Of a DNA stretch of 64,000 bases, positions 3,333-62,557 are shown in pieces (positions within the stretch are counted from its first letter, which is position 1; each line of letters begins with the position of its first letter). The notes below the pieces were generated by a model. It made no database searches, was not told where the DNA came from, and worked only from the letters and a program-made list of their open reading frames with translations. The stretch covers positions 26,608-90,607 of the forward strand of contig JBOIBN010000001.1 of assembly GCA_050739575.1 (NCBI GenBank). The letters are read 5' to 3'. The position numbers were made by a program, and so were the translations under genes. This DNA comes from Gammaproteobacteria bacterium (GTDB lineage Bacteria > Pseudomonadota > Gammaproteobacteria > JAKDMP01).

Positions 3333-3932
3333 ATGGCTGTAACGGCTATTTCAATGCGGTCCATCTCGGATCGTAATTTGCGCGGCGAGGTTGCCGCGCT
3401 TATTGCGAGCGAGAACGGCCCGTCACAGGCGACCTTGTCGCGCGAGGCGGGACTGTCGCCGAGCGCGCTCAACCAGTGGCTGCGGGAACGCTACGCGGGC
3501 GATAACCTCGCGGTCGAGATCAAGCTTTCGCAGTATCTCGAAACCTATTACGCCCGGCTCGCGCGCGAGAAGGCGTTGCCGCAGGCTCCGGGCTGGATTG
3601 CGACGCCGACCTCGGAGCGGATCCTGCAGACGCTCGGCTATGCGCAGATCGCGGGCGACATCGTGATCGTGTACGGCGGCGCGCTCGACGAGCAGGACTG
3701 GGGCATTGACGGCGCCGGCGCGCCGGTCGCCATACGCTCGGAGAATCTGTATTCGGGCGCCATCGATGCGCTGAAGGTCGGCTTGTGGGGCCTGCGCTGG
3801 GAGCAGCGCTTCACGCTCGATGCCGTTGATCCGGCGACGCTCGCGCCGTTCCTCACTTTCCACGAAGATACCGACATGGCGCCGGCCGACGGCGTGATCG
3901 ACATGTCGGAAACCGACGAACTGCAGCAATAG
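3333..3932 (+). CDS. MuB-like protein, N-terminal HTH domain retained, Walker A degenerate (probable non-ATPase remnant)
   Basis: LNQWLRERYAGDNLAVEIKLSQYLE aligns to MuB ISSFINDKYNGDNERVSQMLQRWLE. The segment aligning to the MuB P-loop IAVVCGNPGVGKTEAA reads IVIVYGGALDEQDWGI. The protein is 199 aa against ~312 aa in MuB. Confidence 0.55.
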   Translation: MAVTAISMRSISDRNLRGEVAALIASENGPSQATLSREAGLSPSALNQWLRERYAGDNLAVEIKLSQYLETYYARLAREKALPQAPGWIATPTSERILQTLGYAQIAGDIVIVYGGALDEQDWGIDGAGAPVAIRSENLYSGAIDALKVGLWGLRWEQRFTLDAVDPATLAPFLTFHEDTDMAPADGVIDMSETDELQQ

Positions 3933-20689: not shown

Positions 20690-20941
20690 GAACGTTGTTT
20701 GCGCAACGTCTTCGCCGGCCTGGCGATGGAAAGTATCCCGATCCGGTACACGGTGGGCGGCGGCGCCGGCGTCGAACGCCAGGAACTGATCATCCGTTCG
20801 CGCCCCGACGGCTGGACCGGTCAGGGGCGCCTTTTATGACCCTTTACAGGCCTATAATTCGTCGTTCAGGGGTCGCCGCCTGCCGTGAAATTTCTTCGCA
20901 AACCAAGTGATCCAGATTCGCAAACCAAGTGAACGCTTACA
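20690..20941 (+). repeat. Mu-type right end (attR): three transposase-binding repeats, two direct and one inverted, with a terminal ...CA
   Basis: TTCGCAAACCAAGTGA occurs at 20895-20910 and again at 20917-20932. An inverted copy, CGTTGTTTGCGCAACG, lies at ~20690-20706. The reverse complement of the terminus, TGTAAGCGTTCACTTGGTTTGCGAA, resembles the Mu L1 site TGTATTGATTCACTTGAAGTACGAAAA. Confidence 0.6.
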
Positions 20942-21100
20942 CCTCCGATTTATTCAGAGGTTCCGTGTGGTGCATGGACGCACCACCGTGAATCGAACGC
21001 GTAAGTGCTTGATTCGGCGTAAGACGAGTCCGGGCATGTGCCGGACTCATCGCCTCTGAGCAATTCACGGATGAATTGATCAGAGTTTCCTAAGACTGCT
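20942..21100 (+). repeat. Intergenic ~160-bp repeat element, copy A, abutting the prophage end and upstream of liuB
   Basis: About 85% identical to copy B. It contains the hairpin GTCCGGGCATGTGCCGGAC and the palindrome CTCTGAGCAATTCACGGATGAATTGATCAGAG. Confidence 0.6.
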
Positions 21101-21157
21101 GCGGCGGATAATCGTGGCGCTACCCGCCATAATAGGCAGCGCACAGAGGAGGCCGTC

Positions 21158-39104: not shown

Positions 39105-39606
39105 CCGCATTCCAATCCACCACCATTCGCCGCTCCGCGAGCGATACACCGTCCACATACACCCCGGGAGCGTAGGGAATCAGCCGCTCGCGTTCTCCGT
39201 CCTTCACCACGATCACGTCGTGGCCGCCGGTTTCGATAAAGCCGGCGATGCGACCCAAGGTCGCACCCGCCCGGTTCTCCACCGCGAGGCCGATCAGATC
39301 GGCCCAGTAGTATTCCTCGGTCGGCGGCAGCGCGCTGCGCGGAACCGAAATTTCCGCGTTCAGCAACGCCCGCGCCGTGTCGCGATCCGCCACGCCGGCG
39401 AGATTCGCCACCACCCCCGCGCCGTGCGCCCGCCCGCCGGCCAGTTCATATTCCCGGCGCCCCTCGGCGCCATCCAGCCACCAGCGCGGATAATCGAGTA
39501 TGCCTGTGCGCGGCTCGGTATGAGAGAAGACCCGCACCCAGCCCTGCACGCCGAACACTCCCGCGATGCGCCCGAGCGTGACCCAATCATCCGCCGTGGG
39601 CGTCAT
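39097..39606 (-). CDS. rimM: 16S rRNA processing protein RimM
   Basis: The true start is [26 protein letters not shown]. The Arg-rich extension in the ORF track is an artefact. Confidence 0.8.
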
Positions 39607-39616
39607 CGAAAATCGC

Positions 39617-40114
39617 CTAGGTGTTGTCGGCCTCGGCCTTGGAGTCAGCCTCTGCCCTTGTCTCGGTCTCTGCCGGCGCCTCCACCGCTGCCGACGCCGC
39701 GGCCTCTGCCTCAGCCTTCGTTTCGGTCTCTGTCGGCGCCTCAACTTCCGCCAGCGACTCGGTCACAGTCGGCGCTTTGGGCTCGGTCGGCTCCTTGGTC
39801 TCTGCCGATGCCTCGACCTTGGTCGGTGCTTTTGTCGGCGCCTTGATCGGTGCCTCGACGGCCGGCTGTGCGTCCCGGCCCGCTTCCTTGATGAGCGCCG
39901 CCACCCGATCCGAGGTCTGCGCGCCCTGGCCGCGCCAATAGCTCACCCGCTCGGAATTGAGCGAAAGCCTCTGTTCGCCGCCCGTTGCGATCGGGTTGAA
40001 GTACCCGACGCGCTCGATAAAGCGGCCATTGCGCGCCCGCCGACTGTCCGTCACCACGACGTGGTAGAAGGGCCGCTTCTTCGCGCCGCCGCGTGCCAAT
40101 CTGATCGTTACCAT
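39617..40114 (-). CDS. rpsP: 30S ribosomal protein S16 with an ~80-aa Ala/Glu/Thr/Pro-rich C-terminal extension
   Basis: The core is [25 protein letters not shown]. It is followed by [12 protein letters not shown]... repeats. Confidence 0.8.
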
Positions 40115-40410
40115 CCGCGTTCTGCCCCGCGCTTGCCTGTTATGAAACGTAACGGAGTATTTTATGCGAAAAGACCTTCTTCACGCCAGCGCGCCTTGCT
40201 TGGTCGGCTTAGGCTGATCCACGCGCTTCCATTTTCGAAATCATGCCAACCGTCCGGCCGCCGTGGTGAATGTGCGCCAGAAGCTGGAAACGCGCGCAGG
40301 CCTTGGCGTATATTCGAACTGACCGCGCGAGTGCGCGGCCCAACGGACGCCCGGCCGCATCGGGCTGGACCGGTGGACGCAGATGTTCCCGGTCATCTGG
40401 AGGAGAAGCT

Positions 40411-43006
40411 TATGGATACACGACCAAACGCGCGGCGCGGGTGGGCACTCGCCGCTTTCTCCGCATTTGTCTTACCGGCCTTATTCATTTCTCTTGCTGC
40501 CGGCCCAGCCTGGGCGGCGAGTCCAGCCACTCATTCAGGCTTACCGTCGTCATTGCGCCCGGCGCTCTACCAAGCGCTGGCAAAAGATGCGGGACCGGCG
40601 TTCGCGATCGGCCGGGACGGTTGCGCGACGCTGCCGAAACAGTCACTGAAAGCCTGTTTCGACAAGAACGGCGTGCACTTCAGTAGCGCACGAGCACCCG
40701 AACTCGCCCTGCATCTCGCGGCTTATGGGCGTAGTAACCATCTCGCGAGCGTAAATCCTGTTGCTCCGGTGATCGGCGCCCACCGCGCGAACTATGCGCA
40801 CGACAACGTAACCGAATGGTGGCGTGTGCTCCCGATTGGCTTTGAACAAGGCTTCACGCTGATCAAGCGCCCGGCGGGCCACGACCGTCTCATGCTCGCG
40901 CTAGCAGCAAATCACCACGCTTCCGACGGCAAAGACGGCGCGCTCGCCTGGGGTAAGTTGCGCTACGGAAAACTCGTCGTCACCGACGCAAACGGAAAAA
41001 TCGTCCCCGCGACGCTAAAGCGCTCCGGCCACCGAATCCTCATCGCCGTCAACGACTCGCACGCCGTCTACCCACTCACCGTCGACCCGCTGGTATGGAT
41101 CGAGCAGAAAGTCACTGGCAACGATAGCGCAGCGGGAGATTCTTTCGGCATCTCGGTTGCCCTTGACGGGACGACAGCCTTGGTCGGCGCATACGGTAAC
41201 AACGGCGGACAAGGCGCCGCCTATGTATTTACCGAATCGGGCGGAACCTGGAGTCAGACACAAAAGCTCACGGACAGCGACGGCGTCGCGGGCGGCAGCT
41301 TCGGAAGATCCGTCGCCCTGGACGGTTCCACTGCCCTGATCGGCGCCTATTTCGCAACGGTGAACGGCAATGCGGGGCAAGGCGCCGCCTATGTATTTAC
41401 CGAATCGGGCGGAACCTGGAGTCAGACACAAAAGCTCACGGCCGGCGACGGCGCGGCTTACGATGACTTCGGCTTCTCGGTTGCACTCAATGGCATGACC
41501 GCGCTCGTAGGCGCACCTCAATGTGTTTCCAATTGTGTTGGGTCGGGCAAAGCGGGCAAAGCCTACGTATTCAGCGAATCCAACGGAACTTGGACGCAGG
41601 CAGCCGAGCTGACCGCAAACGATGGCATGCAGGGCGATGATTTCGGTTTCTCGGTTGCCCTCGATGACAATAGCGCGCTGGTCGGCGCACCTCAGTGCGG
41701 GAGTGGTCCCATGTATTGCAACGGTTCGGGCAGGGCTTACGTATTCGGCCAATCGAATGGAAGCTGGACACAGATGGCCGAACTCACCCCAAACGGGGGA
41801 AGCGCGGATGATGCCTTCGGCTCGTCAGTCGCACTCCAAGGCACGACTGCCCTCATAGGTGAGCCTCGGTGTGTTAGCGGCGACTGTAATGGACCGGGCC
41901 GAGCCTATGTATTCGTGGAATCGAATGGAAGCTGGACACAGATGGCCGAACTCACCGCGAACGACGGTGTAGAGGGCGATGAGTTCGGCTCCTCGGTTGC
42001 GCTCGAAAGCGCGAGCGCCCTCGTAGGCGCACCTCAACTCACCGGCGGCGCCGATGCGGGCAAGGCCTATGCATTCAGCGAATCCAATGGGAACTGGACG
42101 CAGTCGGCCGAGCTTGCCGCGAGTGATGGCGCGACGGGCAATGAGTTCGGCGCCTCGGTTGCCCTCTCGGGCGCAACGGCCTTTGCCGGAGCGCCCTGCA
42201 GCAACCCTGATCCGGGTACGCAGGAATGCGGCCCGGGCGCGGCGTATTTCTACGGCCAGAGCGATCTTGGTCTCGCCATGAGCGTGCCTGCCCAAGTCAG
42301 CCTAGGCAGCAACTTCGTCAGCCAGACGATTGCGACCAATAATGCCAGCGCCGTCTCGCCCGCGGTGGCCGTGACCGTGACGGTACCGGCGGCGGCGAGC
42401 TTCGTCTCCGCAAATGCCACTCAGGGGAGCTGCAGCGAAGCCGCTGGGGTAGTGAGTTGTGCATTTGGTCCGATCAATGGCAATGCCGGCACGGCGACGG
42501 CCAATGTGACGCTCAAGGTGCCCGGCGGAAACGCCGTCACATTCGAGAACACTGCGAGCGTTAAATATGCGACCCCGCCGCTCACCGCGAGCGCCGCAAC
42601 GACAATTACTTCCAACAGCTCGCCGGCGGCGAGCAACGGCACGTTGACGACCAACGAAAATACCGCCGCCAACAGCATTCTGATGGCCACGGCCCCGAAT
42701 CTTGATCCACTGACCTTCAGCATCGTGGGTAAGCCGTCCCACGGCACGGTGACGATCAATGATGCGAATACCGGCGCGTACACTTACACGCCGGATCATA
42801 ACTACAGCGGCAGCGATTCGTTCACCTTCAAGGCCACCGACACGGTGACGGGGCTCGTCTCCAACACCGCGAAAATCAGCATCACCGTGAAAGCAACGGG
42901 CGGCGGTAGTTCAGGCGGCGGCGGCGGCAGCACCGGTTGGCCGACCCTGTTTACGCTGCTCGGTCTCGTGCTCATCGGTGTTTGCCTGAAAGGCAAGCGT
43001 GGCTGA
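40411..43006 (+). CDS. Large secreted FG-GAP repeat (beta-propeller) protein with Ig-like, adhesin-type domains and a C-terminal Gly-rich linker, TM helix and basic tail
   Basis: Signal peptide, then about 8 repeats of DxFGxSVAL...AYVF. The C-terminal region ends GGGSSGGGGGSTGWPTLFTLLGLVLIGVCLKGKRG. The start was chosen at MDTRPNARRGWALAAFSAF. Confidence 0.7.
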
Positions 43007-52298: not shown

Positions 52299-52397
52299 TT
52301 CGCAGCCCTCCTTATCATCGCTTCAAAAACCCGCTCCGGATTGACCGTCGCGTCGACACACATCGCAGGGCGGATGCAAACCTGCGGCATATTAAGG

Positions 52398-52556
52398 AAC
52401 CTCTGATTTATTCAGAGATTCCTTGTGGCGCATGGATGCACCACCGCGAATCGGGCACGTAAGTGCTTGATTCGGTGCAAGGTGAGTCCGGACATACGCC
52501 GGACACGTCGCCTCCGGGCAATTCACAGATGAATTGATCAGAGTTTCTCTAAGATC
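52398..52556 (+). repeat. Intergenic ~160-bp repeat element, copy B
   Basis: About 85% identical to copy A (20942-21100). It lies between two minus-strand genes. Confidence 0.6.
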
Positions 52557-62333: not shown

Positions 62334-62439
62334 GGTAAGGACGACGCGGCGCGAAGCATGAACGTCGCCATGCGCTTCAGCACGACATGCCCTACGCCTC
62401 CGAAGCAAACATCACTTAGAAGAGTTGCTTCGTGCGTAC

Positions 62440-62535
62440 CGGAACGACGGTGCCCGGAGGTGCAAGACGGGTCCGGACTTGTACCGGACTCCTCGCCTCC
62501 GAGCAGTGAATGGATGAATTGATCAGGATCCCCTT
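62440..62535 (+). repeat. Intergenic repeat element, copy C (partial; 3' half of the copy A/B element)
   Basis: GTCCGGACTTGTACCGGAC...CGCCTCCGAGCAGTGAATGGATGAATTGATCAGG matches the hairpin and palindrome core of copies A and B. Confidence 0.5.
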
Positions 62536-62557
62536 AAAACTACTGCACGCCTTTTTG

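Follow-up and report, generated by a model that had tools for sequence, protein, structure and literature searches.

Among the closest described counterparts of the repeat discussed here are the Correia elements of Neisseria (CREE/NEMIS). They are non-coding, about 100-200 bp long and have terminal inverted repeats and a short A+T target; many of them lie by or in transcription units, and their hairpin transcripts are processed by RNase III when co-transcribed (PMC10969869). More generally, bacterial MITEs including Correia and ERIC undergo processing by RNase III or RNase E upon co-transcription, and ERIC at the 3' end of genes alters mRNA decay (PMC10969869). BOX and RUP are repeats of Streptococcus pneumoniae (PMC3049150). 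It is this class, Correia, ERIC, BOX and RUP, with which we compare the repeat; the family itself, from an uncultured gammaproteobacterial lineage, is previously unnamed.

As to architecture, a Correia element is one long hairpin formed via 26-bp terminal inverted repeats and has a TA duplication. ERIC is a single imperfect palindrome of 127 bp; REP, which has a GTAG motif, forms one hairpin of 20-40 nt. BOX is modular (boxA-boxB-boxC), with modules missing or swapped, and has no terminal inverted repeats. RUP is a MITE of 107 bp; it has a TA duplication, and its IS630-type partner is known. Groups of the IS5 family (IS1031, ISL2, IS427) and their MITEs have ends that start with GG or GA, and they generate TNA-type duplications of 2-4 bp.

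The repeat resembles Correia in being small and non-coding and in having terminal inverted repeats and an A+T flank. There is, however, no sequence similarity, and in place of one long hairpin it has five separate ones, together with terminal inverted repeats of 11 nt and flanking TAA. Also, Correia elements number more than 100, whereas four copies of the repeat are known. With ERIC/IRU and REP/BIME it shares the character of an intergenic, hairpin-forming and probably transcribed repeat. ERIC/IRU was nevertheless rejected, as blastn found no match in E. coli genomes and the fold comprises several hairpins; so was REP/REPIN with RAYT, as the 154 nt hold five different hairpins and no internal repetition of one unit. 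Copies C and D miss modules just as BOX copies do, but BOX and RUP belong to another host phylum and are unrelated in sequence. The ends GGAAC..., flanked by TAA, recall the IS5 family, a link that consists solely in the pattern of ends and flank; in contrast to that family, no transposase gene or autonomous copy was seen for the repeat.

We consider it probable (roughly 0.6) that the repeat is a lineage-restricted, non-coding, non-autonomous mobile element of the MITE or structured intergenic repeat type. This reading is based on its small size, the inverted repeats plus TAA, the low G+C content, the copies dispersed over different contexts, their modular decay, the restriction to a lineage and the placement at stop codons. 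As in MITEs generally, the unit is shorter than about 500 bp and without coding capacity, it has terminal inverted repeats, and its copies are dispersed and differ by presence or absence.

The stretch of DNA analysed, 64 kb long and called the window below, contains three copies, each intergenic and each on the + strand. Copies A (20941-21090) and B (52396-52549) share 85.9% identity across 156 nt (blastn E 1e-47), far beyond chance. Copy C (62459-62534) retains the 3' half of the repeat alone; it is 84% identical to A over 63 nt (blastn E 2e-14), or 82% over 68 nt by another alignment. Neither blastn nor a covariance model, CM R1, revealed a further copy in the window, which bears out the three-copy family proposed by the initial annotation. 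CM R1, which was used to score copies and to scan contigs, gave 169.8 bits for copy A as it stands in the window, 189.7 bits for copy B and 111.1 bits for copy C, the last over a span of 62388-62545. The full unit, as seen in copy B and in the restored copy A (see below), measures 154-155 nt. Its G+C content is 52%, compared to 63% for the genome. Neighbours of the window copies encode a thiolase and MccB, a PQQ beta-propeller protein, a hydroxylase, a redoxin and a sulfotransferase.

Two more features of the window may be mentioned. An ORF at 39566-43006 (+), encoding 1146 aa, contains at least six tandem units of about 168 nt, 60-77% identical, at 41120-42200, and an N-terminal low-complexity region at 39642-39843 with a period of 18-36 nt; in the related locus L008, an FG-GAP_2/CLIPPER protein is annotated nearby. 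The cumulative GC skew drops almost monotonically from about 4 kb to the window end, and the + strand of the window is therefore probably the lagging strand.

All + frames of the repeat are closed, while two minus-strand frames are open. In these, the amino-acid identity between A and B is 74% and 70%, compared to a nucleotide identity of 86%, and one of the frames found no homologues among 5.8 billion proteins. A small protein gene on the minus strand was rejected on both grounds. The open minus-strand frames, once translated, served to search for spurious ORFs that cover the repeat elsewhere. A profile of the other frame, run against 1.84 billion representatives, hit a 32-aa orphan, P0178 (2298-2396 of contig L013), which is a spurious ORF in public collections that runs across a fourth copy. 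Translating repeats and then searching protein collections is a workable route to further copies.

This copy D lies at 2412->2277 of an unrelated metagenome contig of 3.9 kb (ENA ERZ23510489). It is 75-80% identical and scores 98.8 bits with CM R1. Its sequence opens with TTTAAGGAGGCTCTGA, right at the TAA stop codon of a methyltransferase gene in the same orientation; it comprises H0-H3 plus the 5' arm of H4 before it meets the stop codon of a convergent yggX-like gene. Taken together, copies A, C and D have a co-oriented gene directly upstream, and copy B is antisense to both its neighbours; that the orientation is independent of the flanking genes, as had been said of the three window copies, thus applies to all four. 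The initial annotation had named the lack of additional copies and of conserved structure as what would speak against a repeat family. A fourth copy was found, and the stems covary.

The full unit consists of terminal inverted repeats of 11 nt, GGAA(C/A)CTCTGA, and five hairpins, H0 to H4. The left end reads GGAACCTC(C/T)GA in the restored copy A and in copy B. H0 has a 13-bp stem and the loop TTTAT in both; the 3' arm in copy A, TCAGAGGTTCCGT, lies at 20954..20966 (+), and its partner AAGGAACCTCCGA is found at L010 3876-3888, in a second assembly of the source population. H1 (20967..20986, +) has a 7-bp stem, GTGGTGC/GCACCAC, with the loop ATGGAC in copy A; as ATGGAY this loop is unchanged across A, B and D, and three pairs of the stem are altered on both sides in copy D. 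H2 (20990..21015, +) combines an 11-bp stem with a GTAA loop of the GNRA type, again unchanged across A, B and D.

H3 (21023..21051, +) is present in all four copies. Its G+C-rich stem of 8-11 bp, GAGTCCGG-N7-CCGGACTC with an outer extension, carries a variable loop of 7 nt. The hairpin GTCCGG-N6-7-CCGGAC, earlier reported from the three window copies, was indeed found in each, always as N7, the loops being GCATGTG, ACATACG and ACTTGTA. H4 (21054..21085, +) is CTCTGAGCAATTCA-CGGA-TGAATTGATCAGAG with a stem of about 14 bp in copy A; it is partly decayed in B, lost in C and cut off in D. The palindrome CTCTGA-GCAATTCA-CGGA-TGAATTG-ATCAGAG is likewise intact in A only, as claimed before; B retains the inner 7 bp, and C is without the 5' arm.

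The right terminal inverted repeat of copy A, TCAGAGTTTCC (21080-21090, +), is followed by TAA at 21091-21093. Read as the reverse complement, GGAAACTCTGA, it agrees at 9/11 positions with the left end of copy A, GGAACCTCCGA (L010 3878-3888), and at 10/11 with that of copy B, GGAACCTCTGA. Copy B ends in TCAGAGTTTCTC on the right, with an indel of 1 nt. Terminal direct repeats TCAGAGRTTCC had been described instead. The motif exists, as TCAGAG[G/A/T]TTC, and the window has exactly four instances of it (20954, 21080, 52412 and 52538), but these are the 3' arms of H0 and H4: the two hairpins reuse the terminal motif as stems, and this gives the appearance of direct repeats. The true left end, GGAACCTCYGA, is situated about 18 nt further left than noted; it and the right end are inverted repeats of each other.

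TAA flanks the restored copy A (L010 3875-3877, which is the thiolase stop codon, and 21091-21093) and copy B (52393-52395 and 52550-52552). Copy C ends in TAA (62535-62537), and copy D starts TAA|GGAGGCTCTGA. On the left, the flank is TTAA in A, B and D. The similarity of the copies runs 2-3 nt past the flanking TAA (TAAGAC, TAAGAT, TAAAAC). Judged by the letters of the flanks, the TAA could be part of the element, or it could reflect a target preference without duplication.

Decay of the copies is modular. Copy B, at 52396..52549 (+), is of full length and uninterrupted, with H0-H4 and a fold z of -3.8. Of copy C, the 3' module with H3, a decayed H4 and the TAA covers 62459..62537 (+). Upstream of it, at 62392..62458 (+), there is a possible diverged 5' part: CCTACGCCTCCGA is similar to the left-arm motif and is followed by a private hairpin, CGAAGCAA...TTGCTTCG. 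Copy C may thus keep a diverged 5' part from near 62392, although the extended 5' part folds no better than shuffles.

Copy A has a history of its own. A defective Mu-like prophage of 21.7 kb (window 1-20940 plus L010 3891-4694) sits in its first hairpin, H0. The left junction is seen in the second assembly of the source population, GCA_974167825.1 (loci L007, L008 and L010), which is 99.93% identical to the window and adds 4.7 kb to its left and 9.5 kb to its right. In the window, copy A is without the first 5 nt (AAGGA, L010 3876-3880) of the 13-nt 5' arm of H0. The missing arm, AAGGAACCTCCGATT, is found across the prophage, right behind the thiolase stop codon; the first 15 nt of copy A are at L010 3876-3890, about 21.7 kb upstream and outside the window. 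At both prophage junctions ACCTCCGATT is duplicated (L010 3881-3890 and window 20941-20950). The left junction reads ...GCTTTAAGGAACCTCCGATT|CTTAGGGGGCAGATGGTTTGCGAA... from the thiolase stop onwards, the right one ...TTCGCAAACCAAGTGAACGCTTAC|ACCTCCGATTTATTCAGAGGTTCC.... If the prophage and one duplicate are taken out, AAGGAACCTCCGA-TTTAT-TCAGAGGTTCCGT results, the same 13-bp hairpin with which copy B starts (AAGGAACCTCTGA-TTTAT-TCAGAGATTCCTT). The arm beyond the prophage and the 10-bp duplication imply that the prophage interrupted a pre-existing copy A. Copy A, located between the thiolase gene and mccB of a liu-type operon, predates the Mu-like insertion. The initial annotation was right to see a repeat at this place; the left edge it gave has to be abandoned, as its start coordinate is the prophage junction. 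An interpretation of copy A as the leader of mccB is excluded by the junctions and by its absence in relatives.

The prophage has ends of its own. The right one (20870..20940, +) contains two direct TTCGCAAACCAAGTGA sites (20895-20910 and 20917-20932) and terminates in ...GCTTACA, and by alignment it forms an inverted repeat of about 35 nt with the left end at L010 3889-3925. The left terminus reads TC..., whereas the right end has the canonical TG/CA. The TGGTTTGCGAA sites shared by the prophage ends (20895-20932, L010 3899-3914 and 4057-4072) are outside the repeat. The direct duplication that flanks the Mu-like element, ACCTCCGATT, is 8-10 bp long; that of phage Mu, at 5 bp, is shorter.

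As copy A touches the prophage end, one may ask whether it is the attR or right end of the prophage, or whether B and C are the att scars of an island. Indeed, B is full and C a 3' partial copy, in direct orientation and 10 kb apart, as is seen with islands that target the 3' ends of RNA genes. Yet the ends of the prophage are the different, 35-nt inverted repeat just described, and the missing arm of A is found across the prophage, with the 10-bp duplication. A role of copy A as a Mu end (attR) is excluded by the junctions, with the transposase-binding sites outside the repeat. The pair B-C was rejected as att scars in view of the interval, which holds rpsI, rplM, tRNA-Gln, rpe, typA and coq7 and no integrase. 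We regard an attachment-site origin as extremely improbable.

The prophage encodes a Ner-like regulator (67-360), a MuA-type transposase (942-2960; phrog_310; Pfam HTH_Tnp_Mu, DDE_2 and Mu-transpos_C) and a 199-aa ORF (3333-3932), in which a MuB fragment is joined to the C-terminus of a portal protein. Its contractile-tail module is complete (sheath, tube, tape measure, baseplate gp44-48 and fibres), and there are repressor-like and CII-like genes. Head genes, lysis genes and an intact MuB are lacking. The MuB-portal fusion suggests one large internal deletion, and the element may be a domesticated, tailocin-like tail or merely a defective prophage. No phage relatives of its last gene were found in IMG/VR. 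In the genome of the window, the prophage splits mccB from the upstream genes of the operon.

Is the structure of the repeat itself conserved? The folds of A, B and D are 3.8-6.5 standard deviations more stable than those of shuffles, on either strand. Covariation was tested on a four-copy alignment, A5, with the five hairpins specified. In this alignment, standard pairs make up 87.7% of cells, and 11 pairs have changed on both sides, compared to 4.4±1.5 in shuffles (0/500 reach 11) and to 1-5 in slid controls, in which the partners were moved by 1-3 columns. Relative to A, copy D has C-G -> G-C in H0, U-A -> C-G, U-A -> G-C and G-C -> U.G in H1, and A-U -> G-C and G-C -> A-U in H3. Pairing is conserved through compensatory changes across the four copies. 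The compensatory changes in H1-H3 exceed what a simple cut-and-paste MITE needs, which points to an added constraint, be it RNA function or recognition as single-stranded DNA.

The first of these constraints leads to a different reading. The repeat could primarily be a functional structured RNA, a cis element of 3' UTRs or a processed sRNA, whose hairpins are kept by selection and whose dispersal is secondary. The covarying stems would fit, as would the constancy of AUGGAY in the H1 loop and of GUAA in the H2 loop among A, B and D, although unchanged loops of 4-6 nt are weak evidence with one diverged copy, and loops and linkers overall show no excess of conservation over stems. The H1 loop CAUGGAUG and the H4 loop of copy A, CACGGAUG, resemble A(N)GGA sites of the CsrA/RsmA type, and that of H2 is a GNRA tetraloop; against this, a copy has just one or two loop GGA motifs, that of H4 being lost in B. 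The + strand would be transcribed in A, C and D, which lie directly behind a co-oriented gene, but copy B is antisense to its neighbours. Finally, about 13 G.U pairs on the + strand are opposed by some 7 C.A mismatches (G.U on the other strand), a bias that is not significant.

The copies yielded neither a promoter-like site nor a terminator-like site common to them. Since A and D directly abut the stop codon of the gene before them, a conserved promoter would have no space there, and an sRNA gene is less likely. On balance, a functional RNA as the primary nature of the repeat is unlikely. Still less likely, in our estimate, is a new structured RNA family of 3' UTRs and operon spacers, i.e., a regulatory or protein-binding module that would have been spread by transposition as a mobile cis-regulatory RNA. 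With its covarying stems and two constant loops, the repeat is a reasonable candidate for a mobile RNA module; for more than that, the data are too thin.

Known RNA families did not account for the repeat either. At gathering thresholds, Rfam reported two tRNAs and nothing else in the whole window, and in E-value mode sub-threshold matches at most for A, B, C and D; the earlier statement that no known family is recognisable therefore stands. The gyrA RNA (RF01740) matched copy A at 21017-21103 with 31.4 bits, compared to a gathering score of 45, and H3 and H4 align to its two adjacent hairpins. B, C and D are without a match and no copy is upstream of gyrA; the candidate was rejected and the match is judged to be a resemblance in shape. 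RsmW scored 18.1 bits, the gathering score being 52. A sponge sRNA of the CsrB/RsmX-Y-Z type requires at least four loop GGA motifs and a promoter and terminator of its own, and was rejected in view of the RsmW score, the motif counts given above and the outcome of the promoter and terminator searches.

The second constraint, recognition as single-stranded DNA, would be expected of a derivative of a single-strand-DNA transposon, an IS200/IS605-type PATE or REP-like element that depends on a Y1 transposase and inserts at TTAA without duplication. The stem CCTCTGA...TCAGAG recurs, equally oriented, in H0 and H4, as it should in the subterminal hairpins of such elements, and hairpin covariation with G.T tolerance would be expected from this type of recognition. 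In A, B and D alike, TTAA forms the left flank. The clean, in-register terminal inverted repeat of 11 nt with TAA on both sides is, however, a DDE-type signature, unexpected for IS200/IS605; moreover, neither a spacer nor a guide sequence separates H0 from the flank, and no Y1 transposase was seen in about 78 kb. That the three window copies share one orientation fits a PATE, yet has a p of 0.25. We hold such an origin to be decidedly unlikely.

The MccB-like carboxyltransferase encoded downstream of copy A is 100% identical to a protein of an NCBI MAG. Other genomes are distant: in the nearest of them, the protein identity is 86-91% for MccB and 65-80% for a less conserved Fe-S protein. The thiolase-mccB spacer of the relative L003 has 73 nt, unrelated and without the repeat, and in other relatives toxin-antitoxin pairs or other genes are found at this position. 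About 99 kb from five related MAGs contained no copy by blastn or CM R1. The source population has 3 copies in about 78 kb; at equal density about 3.8 would be expected in the relatives, and P(0) is about 0.02. Blastn in distant mode yielded no match in plasmids, phages and 5,426 E. coli genomes. In 185,579 GTDB species genomes, in JGI metagenomes and in IMG/VR, the exact pattern TCGCCTCN{11,15}GATGAATTGATCAG gave nothing but chance matches in coding sequences, or none. A pattern from H2 that fits A, B and D, GAATCGNNCNCGTAAGTGCTNGATTCGG, found nothing in IMG/VR. By these searches the repeat is restricted to one lineage. Known copies amount to four, possibly a low number for a MITE. The initial annotation had preferred a MITE- or REP-like element, or an sRNA family, to a leader. 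The terminal inverted repeats with TAA, the absence in relatives and the independence from gene orientation support this preference.

The spacers of the liu operon around mccB (window 20840-21157; L003, L004, L006, L014, L015) are an insertion hot spot in the lineage. Across genomes, the insertions comprise toxin-antitoxin pairs (ParDE, MazEF, VapBC-like, Phd-like), a type I restriction system, a haem-uptake cluster, the repeat and the Mu-like prophage.

How might a MITE-like repeat of this kind work? A transposase encoded elsewhere in the genome would recognise its ends. In the sequence covered, nothing autonomous with matching ends turned up; the sole transposase there is MuA-like, and the ends it belongs to are unrelated. 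Insertion would occur at TAA, which is rare in a genome of 63% G+C and mostly found in stop codons and spacers. TTAA occurs just 25 times in the 64 kb, compared to about 250 expected for a uniform base composition, so that an element seeking TAA would land mostly at stop codons or in spacers; the TAA preference would also explain copies directly behind genes. Where the gene is co-oriented, as for A, C and D, the repeat would be transcribed within a 3' UTR or an operon spacer, and transcribed hairpins can serve as signals of RNA stability or processing. Most likely, by analogy to the systems introduced above, the consequence for A, C and D would be co-transcription and cleavage by RNase III or RNase E. 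Modular decay would follow, C having lost the 5' modules and D the 3' hairpin. What we infer is transposition of the DDE type, a target-site duplication of TAA and any consequence for RNA.

For the organism, the finding means a nested insertion: a Mu-like prophage within a repeat that is itself inserted between two genes of the operon for leucine/isovalerate catabolism (liu). For annotation it means that these loci are to be masked as repeats and that no ORFs should be called there. Repeats of this kind shape the expression of operons and offer sites for recombination, and they are often taken for sRNA genes or riboswitches.
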